The notes under the pieces are model-generated. The model searched no databases, was not told where the DNA came from, and saw only the letters and a list, made by a program, of their open reading frames with translations. The position numbers and the translations under genes were made by a program. From an uncultured Candidatus Saccharibacteria bacterium (lineage in GTDB: Bacteria; Patescibacteriota; Saccharimonadia; Saccharimonadales; Saccharimonadaceae), in contig CAMYZS010000003.1 in NCBI GenBank assembly GCA_947303945.1, positions 4,716 to 68,715 of the forward strand: DNA of 64,000 bases, given 5' to 3'. Shown here piece after piece: positions 1 to 21,111 of the stretch. Each line of letters opens with the position of its first letter. Within the stretch, counting starts at the first letter, position 1.

Positions 1-2530
1 GTTCGTGAGAGATTGCGTCCCCTTCTGGCAGTAGATGAATATACTTTTCAACATCGGCACCCGAGTCGATCAACGCCTTTAGTGAAACATGGCGGCGCAA
101 CCCTATAATTGTATCGGTATACGTCTTTTGATCCGTAAGCCCCATATCGCTTTCGCTTGGATTAGCAAACAATAGCTCAACCTCTTCCTTGGTGAGACTA
201 TAGTCTTTTCCGCTTACGACCTTCTTCTCTATGCCTGTTATAGTAGCATTTTTAGCAGTCCTCTCTCGTAGTAATTTGCTTACCTCCGAGAGACTCAGAC
301 GCCCTGACCATTCACCTAAGACAGTCTCATCTAGAGCATCAATGCGTTGTTCAGCCCGAAAAATCGAATCAACGAATCTCTTGCGATGTTTTCTCGGTAG
401 AGACAATAAATAAGAACGGATCGTCATTAATTCTCGCAAGTTTTTCGCAGACTGAATACGCCCATCAAAGTCGCCCGCTCTTTTTAGTAGAACACTCATA
501 GCATACTCTTTATTCGTATATGGATCTACCTGCGGGTTGTAGCATTCTTGTAGCACTAAGTTCAACCGACGAGCAATATCGTCTAAACCGCTAGCACGAA
601 ATCGCGATAGCACAGAACGCTCCGCTTCCCGATATAGCTGATTATTGCCTAAATTAACTTCACCCTCTCTCCAAAAAAGATCGCCATTGTTATCATTCTC
701 TCCCCAGATTACCTTTTTATTAACACTATCAAACTTCGTAACGTAACTACGCTGCGCCAATTCGTAACACATCTCATCAAAATTATCATCGCGCTCACTA
801 TAGTGTTTGGATTCATTTATTCGAATAGCCTGATTTACAATATAACGAAAAACTCCCTCGCGACAGTCTATCGCCTCTTTGTAGAATCGGAGCATCCTTT
901 TCTCTTCCCATTCGTCTATATCAACAGTGGAATACTTCTTAATAAACTCGATCTCTTCTTCTATTGTTCTGCGACCACTTAGAATAGCTTTATAGTCCGG
1001 CGTTAACTTAATCGATAAGCTCTCGTTTGGTCGTCCATACATTTCCCAATACAACCCCCCAGTACTATAGCCACGTTTTTCAATAGGGTGATGATAGCCT
1101 TTGCGATCCTCCCAGTAAAAATCGTCACAATAATACACCTCACCCTTATCGAAATACCCCACTCGTCCAGCTCTTCCCGATATCTGATCAAATAGATTTT
1201 TGCTAATTGGCCTACTCTCATTATATTTTGCCAACTGGCCAAAAGTCGTCATTCTAACAGGCAGATTCAGACCATATGCCACCGCATCCGTTGCAGCAAT
1301 CGCGTCAATCAGCCGGCCGGTAAAGGCTCTCTTCACGAAGGCCTTCTCTTTTGGCAGCATATCACCGTAATAGGTAGATATTCCGTACTCCGCCCATTTT
1401 ATCAATTCCTCGTTATCAATATTTAGCTCATTGGCAAGCTTTTTAATCTCTTGCGTGCGCGCGTCATCATATACAAATGAAGTAACGACAGGTTGAACTT
1501 CTTCAATCTCAACATCCTCATATTCTCTGCGCTCCTCATCGTCATCGTCGTCGTCATCATACTCATCGTCGCGCTCTTCCTCTATGTGGTAACTTCGCTT
1601 AATCCCGTCTGCTCTTGCCTCTAACAGCGTATCAGCAACGATCTTGCAGTTCTTTACTGAAAATGAGACTACCAGAGCATCCTGTATGTCCTCTACGCCA
1701 ATTCTGCCCCTTCTCTCCAATTCCGTCAGACGAGCTTTGTTTTCATAGCAACAATACCTCTGACCAGTGATTTCCTCTATATATCCTACGGTTTTTTGTA
1801 CCTTACCAAATGTAGCTGAACAAACTAATAAATTCTCCGCTTTTGAATTTAGTAGACCATCAACATACGCCCTTGCCCTGTCTGAATTCTCGGAAACAAA
1901 ATTAAATTCATCAACAATTAAAGTCGCGTTTTCATCGTCTGCATATTTGTTTGTATAAATCTCTTGAGTACAACAGATATAATCGGCGTCTTCGGGAATA
2001 ATTTTGCTCTCCCCCGTCTCAAGACCGACCTTATAGCCCATCTTTTTTAAGTTAAGAAAGTGCTCCTCGGAGAGGGCTCTAATGGGCGATGTAACATATA
2101 TCGTATGGTGAGATTCATTATTGTCTTTTTCAGCCTTCTCCTTCTTTTGTCTTGCCCAATCTAAAAATACCGCGGTTTTTCCCGTATTAGTCGGAGAAGA
2201 AAGCACTACGTAACTTTCGTTTTTTATCCGTTCTAGACATTCAATTTGCCAGTCATAATAGCGCTTAGGAAAGCCTTCTTCATCTTGGCGTAATACTTGA
2301 TCATCATTCGAGAGAAACTCTTTAAGTCGTGTAACTTTGTCACCAATTCGATAAGTAAGCGGCTTCGATGCATTTTCATCTATTAGCGTATCATTTTCCG
2401 GACCATCTTCAGTGCTAACATATGGTTCATCGTAATAATCTGCATCAAGCTCTTGATATGCACGCGAATCCAACTCGTCATCCTCGGGCTGCGTTTGCGA
2501 TCTTTGAGAATCAAAGCGTTGTTCGACCAT
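1..2530 (-). CDS. Superfamily-2 DEAD/DEAH-box (Ski2-like) helicase; 3' end lies beyond the window start
   Basis: Absent from the ORF track because it is open to the window edge. Hand translation of the minus strand from ATG 2530-2528 gives an unbroken >840-codon frame (MVEQRFDSQRSQTQPEDDELDS...). Motifs: I SSPTNTGKT, II LIVDEFNF, III CSATFG, VI QISGRAGRVG. Poly-acidic insert EEERDDEYDDDDDDDEERREYED. Confidence 0.85.
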   Translation of the reverse strand, partial: MVEQRFDSQRSQTQPEDDELDSRAYQELDADYYDEPYVSTEDGPENDTLIDENASKPLTYRIGDKVTRLKEFLSNDDQVLRQDEEGFPKRYYDWQIECLERIKNESYVVLSSPTNTGKTAVFLDWARQKKEKAEKDNNESHHTIYVTSPIRALSEEHFLNLKKMGYKVGLETGESKIIPEDADYICCTQEIYTNKYADDENATLIVDEFNFVSENSDRARAYVDGLLNSKAENLLVCSATFGKVQKTVGYIEEITGQRYCCYENKARLTELERRGRIGVEDIQDALVVSFSVKNCKIVADTLLEARADGIKRSYHIEEERDDEYDDDDDDDEERREYEDVEIEEVQPVVTSFVYDDARTQEIKKLANELNIDNEELIKWAEYGISTYYGDMLPKEKAFVKRAFTGRLIDAIAATDAVAYGLNLPVRMTTFGQLAKYNESRPISKNLFDQISGRAGRVGYFDKGEVYYCDDFYWEDRKGYHHPIEKRGYSTGGLYWEMYGRPNESLSIKLTPDYKAILSGRRTIEEEIEFIKKYSTVDIDEWEEKRMLRFYKEAIDCREGVFRYIVNQAIRINESKHYSERDDNFDEMCYELAQRSYVTKFDSVNKKVIWGENDNNGDLFWREGEVNLGNNQLYREAERSVLSRFRASGLDDIARRLNLVLQECYNPQVDPYTNKEYAMSVLLKRAGDFDGRIQSAKNLRELMTIRSYLLSLPRKHRKRFVDSIFRAEQRIDALDETVLGEWSGRLSLSEVSKLLRERTAKNATITGIEKKVVSGKDYSLTKEEVELLFANPSESDMGLTDQKTYTDTIIGLRRHVSLKALIDSGADVEKYIHLLPEGDAISHE

Positions 2531-2650
2531 ATACTCATATTATACTATAACCGTTAATAGAAATAAGACGCCTATCATCCGTAAGCTACTACAACAAATA
2601 ACGCAATTATCATGAAAATTTTTTCTCCTCTTTTATAAAGACTAAACCGC

Positions 2651-2680
2651 AACAAAAAAACGCCCAAAAGGCGTTTTAAG
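2651..2680 (-). terminator. Intrinsic terminator downstream of the 16S rRNA
   Basis: Minus-strand hairpin AAACGCC / GGCGTTT (plus-strand aaacgcc-caaaa-ggcgttt) followed by a T7 run. It lies just 3' of the 16S processing stem. Confidence 0.6.
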
Positions 2681-2830
2681 ACGTTCTTAACAACTTAGTT
2701 GTGCAATCACTTCATCGTAGTATCTGAAGCTTATGTTGCATCTGGTAAACCAGAAAATTAGTAAATTAAGCTTATACCTACTATTGCAACCGACCTAGCT
2801 ACACTATGAGATAGTGCGCTTTTTCTCCCT

Positions 2831-4338
<1,508 letters not shown>

Positions 4339-4584
4339 TGCTACCTAAAAGGTAGGCTTTTGAAAAAATTTGATAAATCAAACATTCGAACGAAATAGAA
4401 AAACTTGTTTTGCTATTTCTGAGAATGTGCAGATTTATATCTTAGTGAAACTAAGATAAAACTCAAATAAAAGACTGACGATGATAATTAATTGCACAAC
4501 TAAATTGTTAAAAAACATAAAATTTAAAAGCTCAGCTAACAAGGGTGTCAAATATAATTGTCCTCTCGCAGTTGAACTGTTCTT

Positions 4585-4613
4585 ATCTTATATTACCCCA
4601 ATTAAACTGTCAA
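4585..4613 (-). promoter_or_regulatory. Candidate sigma70-type promoter of the 16S unit
   Basis: Minus strand reads TTGACA (4613-4608), 17 nt spacer, TAAGAT (4590-4585). A boxA-like TTTTTTAACAA lies downstream in the leader. Confidence 0.45.
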
Positions 4614-4665: not shown

Positions 4666-5130
4666 TTAAAACCACAAAAAACAACAATAGCCAAGGATAA
4701 CGCCTAGCACTGCACCCACGCAAACCTGCGGAACCGTATGCCCCTCCACCACCTTCATTTTGCGCATCTTTTTGCCGTTATCCGACTCTGCAATAATATT
4801 TAATAGCTTCCCCTGCTCTCCAACCGCAAAGCGCACATTTACCGCATCGTAGACCACAATAATCGTCGTAGCAAGTGCCAATACAAACAAACCCGACGTA
4901 AAGCCATTTTGAAGCCCCATAAAGACCGTCAAGCCAGTAAAACTAGCCGTATGCCCACTTGGCATGCCGCCACTACGCGTAAAACAGTCTATGACTTCAG
5001 AAAAACTCAAGATGCGCTTCTTAGTAATAAGATCACCCACAAACTTCCCCGCCTGCGCAAAAAACCACCCCAACACAAAAGCAATCAAACCCCCAATACA
5101 ATTCGAGTCCATAACCATACTATAGCACAA
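4666..5130 (-). CDS. Divergent PAP2 family (DUF212/YuiD-like) membrane protein
   Basis: 154 aa ORF, multi-TM, with the motif SGGMPSGHTASF typical of the divergent PAP2/acid phosphatase-like family. Confidence 0.7.
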   Translation of the reverse strand: MCYSMVMDSNCIGGLIAFVLGWFFAQAGKFVGDLITKKRILSFSEVIDCFTRSGGMPSGHTASFTGLTVFMGLQNGFTSGLFVLALATTIIVVYDAVNVRFAVGEQGKLLNIIAESDNGKKMRKMKVVEGHTVPQVCVGAVLGVILGYCCFLWF

Positions 5131-5165
5131 CCGCTACTCTGCCAATTCGAATCTGCACAAAAACC

Positions 5166-5194
5166 TTGACAAAGTTCATATATATAAGTAAAAT
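5166..5194 (+). promoter_or_regulatory. Candidate promoter of the vapBC-like operon
   Basis: TTGACA (5166-5171), 17 nt, TAAAAT (5189-5194). A direct repeat attcatata x2 (about 5192-5219) between the -10 and the start codon could be the antitoxin operator. Confidence 0.5.
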
Positions 5195-5233
5195 TCATAT
5201 AAAACTTAATTATTCATATAGCAGAGAAATAAT

Positions 5234-5542
5234 ATGGAATTTACTACAGTTATAGGAAAAACTGGGCAAATCACCTTGCCCAGCAAAATCCGCCAGATTA
5301 TCAACGCCACCCCAGGCGATAAAGTCGTCTTCCATGTCGACAACAACAATCGTATCACCATCAAAAAACAAAAGACCACTAATGAGATCTTTTCCGAGCT
5401 CGACCAAATCAGAACACAACTCCCTAGTAGCACCCAACGACACATTCACGAGAATGCCGGAAAAACCATTACCGACTTTCGTAGTGACTGGCTAAAATCA
5501 GAAGCCAATAAACAGGCACTCAAGGAGGAATATGGCTGCTAA
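5234..5542 (+). CDS. vapB: AbrB/MazE/SpoVT-type antitoxin (VapB-like)
   Basis: 102 aa. The N-terminal swapped-hairpin motif reads TVIGKTGQITLPSKIRQIINATPGDKVVFHVDNNNRITIKK. It overlaps the downstream PIN gene by 11 nt. Confidence 0.8.
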   Translation: MEFTTVIGKTGQITLPSKIRQIINATPGDKVVFHVDNNNRITIKKQKTTNEIFSELDQIRTQLPSSTQRHIHENAGKTITDFRSDWLKSEANKQALKEEYGC

Positions 5543-5936
5543 TCCCGAGTCAATCGATACCAATATCATTCTTCGCGCTATTCTAAACGACATCCCCGAA
5601 CAATGCCAAAAAGCGCGCAAGCTTCTATCTCGCCCCAATTCTTCCCTGCACGTCTCCGACCTAGCCATCGCCGAAACAGTATTCGTTCTTGAGAAATGTC
5701 TATGCTACAACCGTGATACTATCGCTAAAGTACTCAACCTCTTCCTTAGCACACCCTCACTAAACTATAACGCCGGCCTCTTTACGAATGTTTTTCCATT
5801 CTATGTCGAGCATCCGCAATTATCGTTTAATGATTGCTGTCTCGCCGTCTATGCCGCCCTCAACCAAGCTGAGCCACTTTGGACTTTCGATCGCAAACTT
5901 GCTATCCAGTCCCCCACCGCTAAAGAATTAATATAA
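5532..5936 (+). CDS. vapC: PIN-domain ribonuclease toxin (VapC-like)
   Basis: 134 aa. N-terminal acidic signature SIDTNIILRAIL, size and genetic context fit type II TA VapC. Confidence 0.8.
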   Translation: MAANPESIDTNIILRAILNDIPEQCQKARKLLSRPNSSLHVSDLAIAETVFVLEKCLCYNRDTIAKVLNLFLSTPSLNYNAGLFTNVFPFYVEHPQLSFNDCCLAVYAALNQAEPLWTFDRKLAIQSPTAKELI

Positions 5937-5984
5937 TAAATACGGCAATAAATATCTATCAGCCTAGCTGGTGGCCTTATCCCA

Positions 5985-6012
5985 AGAAAAAAGCGACCCA
6001 CGCGGAGTCGCC
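5985..6012 (-). terminator. Intrinsic terminator ending the large ncRNA candidate
   Basis: Minus strand reads GGCGACTCCGCGTGGGTCGC followed by TTTTTT. There is no T-run in the plus orientation, so it is strand-specific. Confidence 0.6.
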
Positions 6013-7005
6013 AATTCATACAAAGTGCCAGGAAGATTTTGGCTTGGGGCCATACTTCCAACTGTTTTCCTCCGTTCCTTATCGTATCCCTACGGTTTGG
6101 TAACGGAAACACTCCATCATTGTTGAGCCACAGACATCTCTTGTCAGGTCTCGCGCTTTCAAACGGTTGGCCGACCGCTCTACTCACACTCCTCTAACAT
6201 GAGATTTGCACGCCTACGTGTGTTTAGTTGGGAAGCCTCGCAGAAGCAACCCCCGCACGAACCGAGCGAATACAACCAGCGGAGCCCGCCAGACCAACCC
6301 GAAGGCTGGTAGAAGTTTGCAGACGCAAATCATTCTTCATATTCTTAGCAAGGCTTCCTTGCTGCCACCCGGTACCACTTACCTTCCACCCTTTGGTGGA
6401 CCCCCGAGGCATCCAATAGCACCTCTGTACTATCGGTCGAGGTCGAGTTTTGGGAGGTTTCTCTTGGTTTTCGAGGCCAAGAGATCGCGACGCCCTGTGG
6501 GTTAGCAAATAGATTTGCGGTCTATCGCATCGCCACCTTCTCTCTTCGGATCCCCACTCGGGAATCCTCCGCCGTCATCGTGTCCCACTCTTAGGTTCGT
6601 GTGCTGTACAATGTTCGCTCGCCTTACGATTGGCTCGCTCTGAAGTGTCAATACTGCACAGTTTTTACGTTCCATTTCTGAAATACGCATAGAGCCACAT
6701 TACTGCAGCCCCTCAATACTCACTATCATACACGCAGGCAATTCCACCTTTGATAGCTTTCTCGTGTCTAGGCGCCAAAAGACGCCGACTGTGCATCCAG
6801 CCAAGGCAGGGGTTGCATCCCACCTCTACAACTGGTTTGGCAAAAGTATGAATCCACCGCCCTCAGGCGATGCGTCGATGGAATAATGTCCCAGCATTAT
6901 CCCGCCGGCGCCTCGCCTGAGGCAGCCATGATATTAGTAAGTATTGAAGAAATCTTTTAAAAAACATAATTGCACGGTCTTGGTCTGTGCTTACCTCCGC
7001 GCAAC
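5988..7005 (-). ncRNA. Candidate large (about 1 kb) structured non-coding RNA, family unknown
   Basis: The unit is bounded by a near-consensus promoter (7041-7013) and an intrinsic terminator (about 5988-6012). It is visibly GC-richer than its flanks. Only short ORFs occur, overlapping on both strands and without an RBS. Many perfect hairpins are present: 6861-6870 pairs with 6913-6922 (10 bp), 6293-6310 (7 bp, UUCG loop on the minus strand), 6460-6467 with 6477-6484 (8 bp), and 6548-6567 (8 bp). Confidence 0.45.
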
Positions 7006-7012
7006 TGTTCAT

Positions 7013-7041
7013 ACTATAACAAATCTGCTCATTTTTGTAAA
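7013..7041 (-). promoter_or_regulatory. Near-consensus sigma70-type promoter facing the ncRNA candidate
   Basis: Minus strand reads TTTACA (7041-7036), 17 nt, TATAGT (7018-7013). It lies downstream of the gyrA terminator. Confidence 0.55.
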
Positions 7042-7159
7042 GTGCCACGGTGCAAACGCAAGCCACAACAGAGGTAGAACAATGCAAATTTTTGTAAAAA
7101 CAGCATTTACAACTATTTATTTTTCATCAAAATTCCTATGCAAAAAACAACCATACTCA

Positions 7160-7196
7160 CAAAAATATTCCAGAGCCCATAGACTCTGGAATATTT
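7160..7196 (-). terminator. Intrinsic terminator after gyrA
   Basis: 12 bp perfect stem aatattccagag (7164-7175) / ctctggaatatt (7184-7195), with a T-run on the minus strand. Confidence 0.7.
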
Positions 7197-7220
7197 ATTA
7201 AGAGCTTAAAGGTATTTCTT

Positions 7221-9863
7221 TTATGACTTTTTCTCAGTCTTCTCGACCTTCTCCACCTTTTCGGCGACTCCGCCTTCCTCGGCTTCTTCCTCTTGCGGAA
7301 TAATACCAATCGAGGCTACCGTATCATTATCATTCAAACGCATTACGCGCACCCCCTGCGTCGCGCGACCAAGCGTTGGAATATCCTTCACAGCTACCCT
7401 AATCGCCTGTCCGCCCGTCGACATCATAATAATCTCTTTCGCCTCTGGATCAAGTGTATGTACTGCTGCAATCGGGCCAGTCTTCGCTGTTACCGCCGCT
7501 ACCTTCACACCTACGCCCCCACGCTTATGTGGCGGGAAGTTCGTTGCTGCCGTCATCTTACCGTAGCCCTTCGTTGAGATTACAATCAGCTTCTGACTCT
7601 TCGGATCAGATACAACATCCATACCTACAACAGTATCATTTGGACGTAAACGTACACCGCGTACACCACGCGCCGAACGGCCCATTGGGCGTACATCCTT
7701 CTCATTAAAGCGTACCGCCTGGCCAGCCGAAGTCGAGATAATAATATCATTCTCGCCCGTCGTACCACGCACCCAGCGTAGCTCATCGCCCTCGTCAAGT
7801 TTAATCGTAATTAAACCATTAGTGCGAATATTGGCATAATCTTTCAACGAAGTCTTTTTAATTGTGCCCTTAGAAGTCGTCATAAAGAGATAGCCATTTT
7901 CACCCGCCTCGTCTCCTTGCTTAATTACAGCCGTAATCTTCTCTTCCGGATGTAAATTCAATAAGTTAACCGAAGCCGTACCCTTCGCTACTAATGATGA
8001 CTGTGGAATTTCGTAGGCCTTTATCCGGAAAATGCGACCTTGATTAGTGAAAAATAGCAAATAATCGTGCGAAGAAGCCGTAATAATCGTGTCAATCACA
8101 TCTTCTTCCTTCGTTGTCATACCGCGACGCCCCTTACCGCCACGATTCTGCTTCTTGAAGTCATTTTGCAAAACACGCTTGACATAGCCTTGCGCCGTCA
8201 AGAGCACTACGCTCTCCTCGTCTGGAATCAAGTCCTCCTCGGCAAATTTACCAAGCTCGTGATTATAAATCTTACTCCTACGCTTGTCGCCATACTTCTC
8301 TTTCATTGCTAGAAGCTCTTCTTTAATTACGTCAAGAATCGCCTGCTCAGAAGCTAAAATCCCTTCAAGCTTCGCAATTAACTCTCGAAGTTCCTTCAAT
8401 TCGTTTTCGATCTTATCACGCTCGAGTCCTTGGAGACGACGTAGCTGCATTGCCAGAATAGCTGCCGCCTGCACTTCGGATAAGCCAAAGCGTTCCATTA
8501 AACGCTTGTCCGCATCGTCGTAAGATTCGCGAATTGTCTTGATAACCTCATCGATATGATCAAGTGCAATCTTCAACCCCTCCAAGATATGCGCACGTTC
8601 TTTTGCCTTATTTAGATCAAACTCCGTACGACGACGTACTACTTTTTGACGATGCTTAATAAACTCCGCCAAAATTTCCTTAAGCCCCATCACCTTTGGC
8701 TGAATACCATCAACCAGCGCCAATACATTGTAGTGGAACGAGGTCTGCAAACCGGTTAATTTATAAAGTTGATTCAAGATTTTCTTCGGAAAAGCATCTT
8801 TCTTGAGCTCTACTACCACGCGAATTTTGCCGCGCGCCGACTCGTCACGCGCATCGGCAATATGATCCAGCTTCTTTGCAAGCACGAGCTCGCGTACCTT
8901 ATCTACAAAAGCCTCTTTGCTCATACCATAAGGTACTTCTGTAATCACAATATTGAAACGGCCATTTTTACGCTCCTCAATATTCGTTACCGCCCGAATC
9001 GTCACCGAACCGCGACCAGTCTCATAAGCCTGCACCATCGGTGCACCGCCATAGACTTCCGCCCCCGTCGGAAAATCCGGACCCTTCACATGTTTCATTA
9101 ATTCCTTCAGAGTAATATCCGGGTTATCAATTTGTGCAATCGTCGCATCGACCACTTCGCCAAGATTATGCGGCGGAATATTCGTTGCCATACCAACCGC
9201 AATACCCATCTGGCCGTTCAAGAGAATATTCGGTACTGCTGAAGGCAATACGACCGGCTCCTGTTCGGTACCATCAAAGTTATCACGAAAATCAACCGTA
9301 TTCTTCTCAATGTCAGCCAACAGCTCCACGCCCAACTTATCCATGCGCGCCTCAGTATAACGCTGAGCAGCCGGTTCATCGCCATCCATCGAACCGAAGT
9401 TACCCTGACCTTCTACCAAGGTGTAGCGCATCTTCCACGGCTGCGCCAAGTTCACCATCGATTCGTAAATCGAGGAATCACCATGCGGGTGATAAGAACC
9501 CATCACATCGCCGACAATCTTCGCCGATTTTACCGTTGGATGAGGCGGCTTATACCCCTTCTTATTCATCGCATAAAGAATACGGCGGTTTACCGGCTTC
9601 AAACCATCACGCACATCTGGCAAAGCGCGATCAATCAGTACCGACATCGAATAGCGCAAAAAGCTATCCTCCATCACACTCTCGACAGTCAACTCTTCAA
9701 CGCCATCTTCGGCTACATGCGCCTTCAGGCCGCCGACTTTAACAACCTCTTCCTCTTCAGGCTCGGTCTGGTAATCGCCTAGAGTTTCGTCAACGCCCTT
9801 ATCGTCGCTCGCGTCTGACACCCCACCAACTTTGCTCTTATCTTTCTCGTCTTTATCTGCCAT
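7221..9863 (-). CDS. gyrA: DNA gyrase subunit A
   Basis: 880 aa with ...[24 protein letters not shown]... and the catalytic region [19 protein letters not shown] lies upstream. It has an acidic N-terminal extension of about 55 aa and an acidic C-terminal tail. Confidence 0.98.
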
Positions 9864-17353: not shown

Positions 17354-17721
17354 TGGTGGAGCTGCCGGATACTGCCTCCGGGTCCGAACTACCTCTGGTA
17401 TGTAATCTACGGACATAGTTCATTCTTTTCATCTCGACAAACTCACTAGAGCTGGAATAAACAAAACTCGAGCAATGTCATGACTGATTTTTCGTGCTGA
17501 TCTCTGTCAAAAGGTCAACCTTATTACCATATGTATGATATTATCCGAAGTTATGGTATCTCACCGAGGATAACAGACCTAGCAATATCTTAGGCCAAAG
17601 CGTAAGCAGGCATATAAGCTACATGCTTACTAGCAGTTTTGTCTGCATTTATGAAAACACTTACGGTGTTAATCGATCCGCATACATACTGTTAATAATC
17701 CGTCTAAGCTTTGTCAGCCCC
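17354..17721 (-). ncRNA. ssrA: tmRNA (transfer-messenger RNA)
   Basis: The minus strand begins GGGGCTGACAAAGC and ends TCCGGCAGCTCCACCA. The acceptor stem GGGGCUG/CAGCUCC has G3:U70. The tag frame (17646-17590) reads GCA GAC AAA ... TTG GCC TAA = ADKTASKHVAYMPAYALA*. Confidence 0.9.
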
Positions 17722-20753: not shown

Positions 20754-21111
20754 AGACAAGCTCGCCTCATAAGCCGGGTTCTGTAACTTAACGTCGAAAC
20801 GCCAAGCCTGTAGTCATCTATCTAGCCGCACGATTGCTCGCACGATCTAGCGGTGAGCGACCATCCGCGGATCACGGTATATAGGTCTCCTTGCAGCCGG
20901 TAGAGTTTACCCCACCTCGATGTCACCACCGAGATCTGTAGGCTCTTGCCCTACTCTTTTCACCCTTACCCCAGTCATAGACTAAGGCGGTATAGTTTCT
21001 GTGGCACTTTTCCTACGCTTACGCGCGGTTGCCGTTAGCAACTACCGTATCCTATGCTGCCCGGACTTTCCTCTCGCCATAAGGCCAGCGACTACATCAA
21101 CGAGCTTGTCT
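20754..21111 (-). ncRNA. rnpB: RNase P RNA (bacterial type A)
   Basis: Minus strand shows P1 AGACAAGCTCG...CGAGCTTGTCT, CR-I GAGAGGAAAGTCCGGGC, AGGGTGAAAAG, and the P4 3' strand ACAGAACCCGGCTTA. Confidence 0.92.

Follow-up and report, generated by a model that had tools for sequence, protein, structure and literature searches.

Here, we describe what is very probably the gene for a stand-alone, non-coding and highly structured RNA of about 1.0 kb, belonging to a family that is not in Rfam 15, in the genome of an uncultured Candidatus Saccharibacteria bacterium. The gene lies on the minus strand next to gyrA in a 64,000-nucleotide stretch of contig CAMYZS010000003.1, which was analyzed as a whole and is termed the window in the following. 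As far as can be judged from its sequence, the region from 7010 to 5987 is a self-contained unit running from promoter to terminator, and conservation of these two signals supports the predicted ends of the RNA. The principal features of the unit are as follows.

5987-7010, minus strand: the RNA itself, ~1,020 nt; homologues cover both ends, and fold and covariation speak for it
Start near 7009-7005, 3' end in the U-tract 5991-5987, minus strand: predicted ends of the RNA, the start being deduced from the distance to the -10 hexamer and from the conserved GAACAGUUGCG
7013-7041, minus strand: sigma-70-type promoter with -35 hexamer TTTACA (7041-7036), 17-nt spacer, TG (7021-7020) and -10 hexamer TATAGT (7018-7013)
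5987-6012, minus strand: intrinsic terminator with an 8-bp G+C-rich stem, a 5-nt loop and a U-tract

A first-pass annotation of the window, made from the sequence, had pointed to a block of about 1 kb that lacks a credible open reading frame (ORF) and is richer in G+C than its flanks. Both statements hold. The longest ORF in 5988-7041 comprises 112 aa, and the ORFs overlap each other on both strands. The G+C content is 0.49-0.55 over positions 6001-6900 compared with 0.38 in 6901-7350 and 0.44-0.47 in 5551-6000, and it matches that of the 16S gene of the same window (0.49-0.54). A consensus scan recovered the minus-strand promoter TTTACA-17-TATAGT at 7041-7013 that had been proposed (10 of 12 matches), as well as the strand-specific intrinsic terminator, GGCGACTCCGCGTGGGTCGC followed by a T-run, at 6012-5992/5987 on the minus strand. 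The promoter is near-consensus and has an extended -10 element, with TG ahead of the hexamer. A profile of the RNA matched nothing else in the window with nhmmer, i.e. the RNA is single-copy there, and neither an embedded tRNA nor tandem repeats were found in the window copy.

Homologues were collected from contigs carrying close GyrA variants, from a single metagenome scan with a conserved pattern of two blocks, taken from the most conserved block of the RNA (6797-6835), and by profile searches. They occur in seven lineages of related Saccharibacteria, with identities from 95% down to ~53% over aligned positions, are 0.96-1.29 kb in length, share no conserved reading frame and carry compensatory changes, in line with what the first-pass annotation had expected of homologues in Saccharibacteria genomes. 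Compared with the window RNA, identity is 95% for L097, 89% for L096, 72% for the group of L007, L083, L084, L091 and L094, 63% for L092 and L093 and 53% for L085-L090 (L086 being the sequence compared); L104 and L105 are two further lineages carrying the RNA. From start to terminator, eight units measure 964-1,287 nt, and those of L104 and L105 measure 1,073 and 1,067 nt, respectively. On the basis of GyrA, the host groups with rumen and gut Saccharibacteria, several relatives being labelled Nanosyncoccaceae. Among 80 species representatives fetched via GyrA, L007 alone has a full homologue, which was also the outcome of an nhmmer profile search over 1.25 Mb of Saccharibacteria loci; L082 retains only a 3' remnant, in which ~290 nt at the end of the aligned region survive (~240 nt of RNA). 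A covariance model of the 194-nt most conserved domain (6652-6845) found true homologues only in the same 1.25 Mb. The metagenome pattern matches L095, L098 and L099 were rejected as chance matches in coding-like sequence. The variant of L092 and L093 has an additional 5' domain of ~330 nt (L092:1298-1640; also L093, minus strand). It includes a long hairpin of 2-5-bp G+C helices between AAA loops with a CCAAAGG repeat of period 7-8, and its folding z-score is only -2.4.

The RNA is conserved well above the neutral level. The window, L007 and L086 share 95-97% identity in their GyrA proteins, but the four-fold degenerate sites of gyrA in these genomes are only 45-50% identical, that is, saturated. 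Against this background, the RNAs of the window and L007 are still 72% identical, so that the RNA is under purifying selection. Perfectly conserved blocks of 20-45 nt alternate with variable helices. The notion that the RNA evolves faster than its flanks was dropped because the four-fold sites of gyrA are saturated.

The promoter and the terminator are conserved along with the RNA. TTTACA-17-TATAST stands at a constant distance from the conserved start (G)ACAGUUGCG in all seven lineages. Of the 18 loci in which the 5' end of the RNA is preserved, 17 contain the longer pattern TTTACA-N16-18-TATANT-N5-CAGTT; the exception, L105, has the -10 hexamer TATACT, yet keeps TTTACA-17-TATACT-N4-ACAGTT. 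Away from RNA 5' ends, the pattern was encountered in a cassette of L104 only (see below). A terminator hairpin followed by a U-run occupies the same position in six of the seven lineages with a stem sequence that differs by lineage (e.g. L092, L104 and L105); in the L086 lineage, the 3' end is marked by no more than a weak 3-bp hairpin (GGG/CCC) and U4. Upstream of the promoter, three further conserved elements are found.

7093-7111, minus strand: palindrome TGTAAA-N7-TTTACA, ~50-70 nt upstream of the promoter and in the same place in every lineage
7083-7098, minus strand: upstream copy of the -35 box, TTTACAAAAATTTGCA, a conserved direct repeat of the promoter -35 region 57 nt away
7076-7066, minus strand: TACCTCTGTT box, 3' of the upstream -35 copy and conserved in the alignments in every lineage

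The palindrome has one exact site in the 64 kb, the single other site having one mismatch, and may act as an operator or an upstream element of the promoter. Together, the upstream -35 copy and the -35 region of the promoter form a tandem promoter-like module.

The predicted minimum free energy (MFE) of 996 nt of the unit is -378 kcal/mol on the minus strand (z = -6.95 against shuffles) and -319 kcal/mol on the plus strand (z = -3.69). RNAalifold with eight aligned sequences yielded 225 pairs in 37 helices. In this alignment, 92.1% of the cells were paired compared with 40-42% when the 3' partners were slid by 1-3 columns, and 91 pairs had changed on both sides, compared with 15-23 in the slid controls. 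None of 500 shuffles reached the observed values on four of five measures, while 65 of 500 did so for further pair types. With two more lineages brought in, the alignment of nine sequences gave 262 pairs in 42 helices, 93.2% paired cells (38-43% when slid) and 110 pairs changed on both sides (26-32 in controls), and not one of 500 shuffles attained the observed value on any of the five measures. G-U pairs account for 13.5% of the cells, and the same helices read from the opposite strand pair to only 81.5%, which indicates that the minus strand is the functional one.

All helices that the first-pass annotation had listed are present and are conserved with compensatory changes in the homologues: 6861-6870/6913-6922 corresponds to H2, 6293-6310 with its UUCG loop to H28, 6460-6467/6477-6484 to H21 and 6548-6567 to the H19 hairpin. 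The two small helices ccacc-aaa-ggtgg and agcaagg-aa-gccttgct were recovered upon leaving out the badly aligned L086 row; both show covariation in L092 and L097. Within the structural evidence, the greatest weight falls on the slid-partner control and the long-range helices. Overall, the comparison shows a complex fold of ~40 helices with multi-stem junctions that is kept by compensatory changes, with the following predicted parts.

6963-7006, minus strand: 5'-terminal hairpin AGUUGCGCGG.../...CCGUGCAAUU of the MFE fold, followed by an A/U-rich linker (6962-6922)
6862-6921, minus strand: long peripheral hairpin H2/H3, an inverted repeat that corresponds to the 10-bp helix of the first-pass annotation with the second helix inside it; 22 pairs, 8 of them changed on both sides
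6842-6838 / 6030-6026, minus strand: core-closing long-range helix H4; 5 pairs, 100% paired in nine sequences
6797-6835, minus strand: hairpin H5/H6 with flanks, AAACCAGUUGUAGAGGU...GCCUUGGCUGGAUGC, nearly invariant and the most conserved block of the RNA
6655-6795, minus strand: domain closed by H7 (6795-6788 / 6662-6655) and holding H8-H14
6108-6649, minus strand: largest domain, closed by H15 (6649-6641 / 6116-6108) and H17 (6613-6600 / 6130-6118)
6160-6182, minus strand: hairpin H34, with the 6-nt apical loop YGGCCR (6173-6168, CGGCCA), whose palindromic GGCC is invariant in all lineages
6031-6107, minus strand: 3' hairpins on the central junction, H35/H36 (6107-6071, with conserved AAACCGUAGGGAUACGAUAAGG) and H37 (6059-6031)

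Four nested long-range helices, H4, H7, H15 and H17, join the ends of the core and close the two large domains. One pair of H4 covaries as CG/UA/UG. In the nine-sequence alignment, eight of the nine pairs of H15 and four of nine in H17 have changed on both sides, every cell of H17 remaining paired. The sub-domains of the largest domain are formed by H18-H34 and include the hairpins at 6548-6567, 6460-6484 and 6293-6310. An equivalent 5' hairpin of different sequence is present in L007, L086 and L104, and L086 keeps the H5/H6 hairpin with a different inner stem. The GGCC loop of H34 is a candidate kissing loop. The loop of H37 (6031-6059) also contains GGCC, except in L086, where it reads GGUUAA and could pair with UUGGCC of H34; the two loop sequences are compatible with an intramolecular loop-loop contact and with dimerization alike. 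CCUAAG and UAUGG, parts of the 11-nt tetraloop receptor, are present in the RNA but do not lie opposite each other in the predicted pairing.

The window and the homologues were compared with all 4,227 models of Rfam 15 by cmscan at gathering and permissive thresholds. At E<=10, the sole match in the unit of the window was a 22-nt chance match, and the divergent homologue L092 matched no family apart from 16S and terminator-like matches. At E<=0.1, nine homologue-bearing or pattern-matched loci gave 16S and terminator-like matches only. GOLLD, ROOL, OLE, HEARO, raiA, group I/II introns, rRNA, signal recognition particle (SRP) RNA and 6S RNA are therefore excluded as families. The first-pass annotation, which had assigned the unit to no known family and had seen in it none of the signatures of 23S/5S rRNA, RNase P, tmRNA, SRP RNA and group II domain V, was right on both counts, the respective covariance models having no match in the unit. 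The sole rRNA match in the window is the 16S gene (2833-4337); the same scan located RNase P RNA (20754-21107), tmRNA (17354-17721) and six tRNAs elsewhere in the window. The further suggestion that no such RNA had been described for Saccharibacteria also stands, as none was found in open-access text, either for this group or for the candidate phyla radiation. In a survey of 224 motifs, the only TM7 motif is the small lysM-TM7 leader. The RNA lies outside every described family and, as a descriptive kind, is a large ornate bacterial non-coding RNA (ncRNA), that is, one of more than 500 nt with no coding capacity. The sequence-based outcomes that the first-pass annotation had named as refuting its idea (a significant Rfam match, a conserved reading frame, a lack of covariation) were all examined, and none of them occurred.

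Among RNAs of this kind, GOLLD is of the order of 800 nt. The new RNA resembles it in being a very large bacterial ncRNA with many multi-stem junctions, a patchy distribution and dispensability, and the invariant palindromic loop could, as a candidate judged from sequence, act as a kissing loop. GOLLD forms RNA-only multimeric cages via kissing loops and A-minor contacts (PMC12286853) and is typically found in prophages and/or next to tRNAs (PMC5737381). In contrast, the RNA described here lies outside prophages, has no tRNA in or beside the unit, adjoins 16S, belongs to Saccharibacteria and is longer (0.96-1.29 kb). With ROOL it shares an ornate multi-junction fold supported by covariation and few absolutely conserved nucleotides, ROOL itself having been found in rumen metagenomes. 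The phyla with ROOL are Firmicutes, Fusobacteria and Tenericutes. The ROOL (rumen-originating, ornate, large) RNAs average 581 nt, were reported from three phyla and often lie in prophages and near tRNAs (PMC5737381); they too form RNA-only nanocages, which like those of GOLLD depend on kissing loops and A-minor contacts (PMC12286853). The new RNA differs from them in being about twice as long, chromosomal and from other hosts, with no match to the model and no true phage or viral matches.

OLE (ornate, large, extremophilic; ~600 nt) is likewise a large ornate RNA and is the model for the mechanism that we prefer (see below). It is a trans-acting protein scaffold and forms an RNA dimer (PMC12286853, PMC12054373). 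However, OLE sits in a conserved Bacillota operon with the genes for its partner proteins, whereas no conserved partner gene accompanies the new RNA. Group II introns are similar in size and also have domains radiating from a central junction. They are set apart by the intergenic position of the new RNA, its own promoter and terminator, the lack of an intron-encoded protein and of an Rfam intron match, and an architecture in which the third rather than the first domain is the largest and a helix closes the ends. Finally, the RNA is like 16S in its G+C content and the type of its promoter -10/start motif, and like stable RNAs in general (16S, RNase P RNA, tmRNA) in its G-U richness and strand-specific folding, but it matches no small subunit, large subunit, 5S, RNase P, tmRNA or SRP model and is dispensable in sister species.

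In the window, the minus strand encodes gyrB and gyrA; the latter ends at 7221, and its terminator contains a perfect 13-bp hairpin (7163-7196). Beyond gyrA follow the RNA unit, a vapBC pair on the plus strand (MazE-type antitoxin and PIN toxin, 5234-5936), a DUF212 gene (4666-5130, minus strand) and the 16S gene (2833-4337, minus strand). The vapBC pair is convergent to the RNA, and no gene on the strand of the RNA precedes it 3' of the unit. A 23S gene follows 16S neither in the window (1-4337) nor within 2.5 kb 3' of 16S in L083 (7652-11687), which suggests that this clade has unlinked rRNA genes. Most of the 80 relatives have the order gyrA-DUF212-16S without the RNA, the 16S gene starting ~0.8 kb past gyrA. 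Contigs of related metagenome-assembled genomes (e.g. L003, L004, L006, L009, L015 and L017) end 0.9-1.5 kb past gyrA because the assemblies break inside the following 16S gene, not at the RNA.

The slot between gyrA and DUF212 (window 4666-7221) is hypervariable among species whose GyrA proteins are 92-97% identical. The RNA occupies it alone in L007 and L096, together with vapBC in the window and L097 and together with a G+C-rich cassette in L104 and L105. In L106 and L107, the slot encodes a 257-aa membrane-anchored protein, and in L101 and L102 it is empty, with 36 nt from gyrA to DUF212. L003 and L006 lack the RNA and have kept the 3' half of the terminator, with two different left junctions; with L082 included, three empty or partial sites display three different junctions. 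The different junctions and the retained half-terminator identify these sites as deletion scars and not as empty insertion sites, which in turn means that the RNA is ancestral to this clade and dispensable. Insertion as the cause of the patchy presence was ruled out by the same three scars. The RNA is thus accessory, having been deleted in sister species. A second context exists in L092 and L093, where the RNA lies 3' of the 16S gene and a RelB/YafQ pair and 5' of two genes for TrmB-like regulators.

The cassettes of L104 (2790-3530) and L105 (6720-7560) lie between gyrA and the RNA and are visibly richer in G+C than their ~44% flanks. The former contains two short ORFs (56 aa and 43 aa) and the latter a 152-aa ORF, and both cassettes possess a promoter module of their own (palindrome, CTCTGTT box, TTTACA-17-TATAAT) and their own terminator. 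Judging by their composition, the cassettes may have come from a high-GC donor; Actinobacteria are the known hosts of Saccharibacteria. Type II toxin-antitoxin (TA) pairs with RNase toxins are direct neighbors of the RNA twice, in unrelated contexts: a MazE-like/PIN pair adjoins it in the window (5234-5936) and L097, and a RelB/YafQ pair in L093 (5147-5736). This may reflect only a shared tolerance in a variable slot.

These surroundings bear on the possibility that the RNA belongs to a mobile or defense-type cassette, for example as an ORF-less intron-like element or as a guide, template or antitoxin RNA, which moves with its promoter module and is not of a housekeeping style. The hypervariable slot, in which relatives hold nothing, a membrane protein, TA genes or foreign-looking G+C-rich cassettes, the copy of the promoter module in the cassettes of L104 and L105, the second genomic context and the TA neighbors in two contexts would all fit. 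However, no gene for a transposase, recombinase, integrase, reverse transcriptase or nuclease was found beside the RNA at any locus examined, there are no terminal repeats or target duplications around it, and the junctions indicate deletion, not excision. The models of group I/II introns, retron-type RNAs and HEARO gave no match, and the RNA is present once per genome window. Four exact-pattern scans of IMG/VR returned nothing real, the single match, L100, being a chance match in a high-GC phage contig, and phage and plasmid collections searched by blastn contained no match. Hence, we regard a mobile or defense-type cassette as improbable.

The vicinity of the 16S gene raises a second alternative. 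The RNA promoter (7003-7041) and the 16S promoter (4575-4613) have in common a -10 hexamer followed by three bases and GAACAGTT, and the first ~20 transcribed bases are alike in the two RNAs (GAACAGTT..GCG.G.GG). The pattern TANNNT-NNN-RACAGTT has two matches in the 64 kb, the 16S and RNA promoters, where 0.24 would be expected, and the -10/start motif is also located ~150 nt upstream of 16S in relatives. The RNA could accordingly be a cis-acting part of the rRNA operon, either as a long leader or spacer transcribed together with DUF212 and 16S or as a leader that regulates the downstream gene. Besides the shared promoter/start motif, this is favored by the common orientation with 16S, by a distance within 1.7 kb in both genomic contexts and by the weak terminator of the L086 variant. 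It is opposed by the intrinsic terminator with U-run in six of the seven lineages, the separate promoter of 16S further downstream, the position of the RNA 3' of 16S, not upstream, in L093 and the many relatives that run gyrA-DUF212-16S without the RNA. Moreover, the downstream neighbor differs between loci: the window has the convergent vapBC, L007 has DUF212 and L093 a TrmB-like gene. As this neighbor varies and is convergent in the window, the RNA is not a leader. A role as part of the rRNA operon therefore seems very unlikely. An antisense relation to 16S, RNase P RNA or tmRNA was rejected, since the longest complementarity of 9-10 nt is not above that of shuffles. Because its promoter is rRNA-like in sharing the -10/start motif of 16S, the RNA is probably made abundantly, as a stable RNA.

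The block could also be a missed or decaying protein gene on either strand. Gene callers have placed two 62-aa ORFs inside the RNA (L001:13087-13553) and an antisense ORF of 232 aa in one lineage (L086:4509-5207, also L087-L090), which is rich in Arg, Pro, Ser and Leu, and open frames extend to 263 codons in L086. The frames are not conserved, however, as the first-pass annotation had expected for a non-coding unit: the longest ranges from 80 to 263 codons among the homologues, with differing strands and phases; mismatches are evenly spread over the codon positions (86/103/91 between the window and L007, 120/123/121 between the window and L092); and 17 of the 22 window-L007 indels are not multiples of three. 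Perfect blocks of 30-45 nt show no third-position variation while the synonymous sites of gyrA are saturated. A search of 5.8 billion proteins for relatives of the 232-247-aa antisense ORF of L086-L090 recovered only its own ~100%-identical cluster. A six-frame pseudo-protein query also returned no matches, a negative that is weak by itself on account of the X-joined fragments. The public gene calls inside the RNA are spurious, and we consider a protein gene, the antisense ORF included, to be extremely unlikely. We give next to no credence to a functionless G+C-rich spacer with hairpins formed by chance, which would fit the loss in sister species without an obvious replacement but neither the conservation far above the saturated synonymous level nor the 110 compensatory pairs with conserved long-range helices nor the conserved promoter and terminator.

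Several points weigh against our interpretation of the unit as the gene for a structured RNA with a function of its own. The RNA is missing from the gyrA loci of 78 of the 80 related species and deleted in close relatives, and is thus not essential. Only seven lineages are known, drawn from one narrow clade and an unassigned contig, and the covariation counts accordingly reflect a small number of independent events. The same alignment served both to predict the structure and to count the pairs, and L086 is aligned poorly in parts. The transcript, its ends and its abundance are deduced from the sequence, which points to no specific partner or chemistry, and no protein gene is consistently linked to the RNA.

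For the structured RNA, we propose that it would be transcribed from the rRNA-like promoter as an abundant stable RNA, the ends of which may be protected by the 5' hairpin and the terminator hairpin. The invariant nucleotides of the junctions would form a tertiary core, and the RNA would act in trans as a folded molecule. By analogy with OLE, ROOL and GOLLD, we tentatively favor an architectural RNA, serving either as the RNA part of a ribonucleoprotein or as an RNA-only assembly, with the GGCC loop as a candidate contact. A ribozyme appears rather unlikely, and the same applies to an RNA that sequesters a protein.

Apart from rRNA and group II introns, very few RNA classes of bacteria are known to exceed 500 nt. 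With 0.96-1.29 kb, the RNA described here would be the longest of these large ncRNA classes and exceeds GOLLD in length. When ROOL was described, at 581 nt, the only RNAs named as longer and more complex were rRNAs, GOLLD and group II introns (PMC5737381), and each of the large classes has proved to be unusual in its biology, taking the form of RNA-only nanocages or membrane-linked ribonucleoproteins (PMC12286853). As far as we could find, it would be the first such RNA from the candidate phyla radiation, whose genomes of less than 1 Mb can ill afford a kilobase of non-coding DNA. A concrete, clonable set of sequences with a covariation-supported fold is now in hand, and spurious "hypothetical protein" calls in public assemblies are corrected. 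It is possible, though in our view doubtful, that the RNA founds a new class of giant RNAs specific to Saccharibacteria within the candidate phyla radiation, longer than GOLLD and driven by an rRNA-type promoter to the levels of stable RNAs, which would perform sophisticated chemistry or build an RNA-only particle and might serve the epibiotic lifestyle of these bacteria or the biology of their ribosomes and translation.

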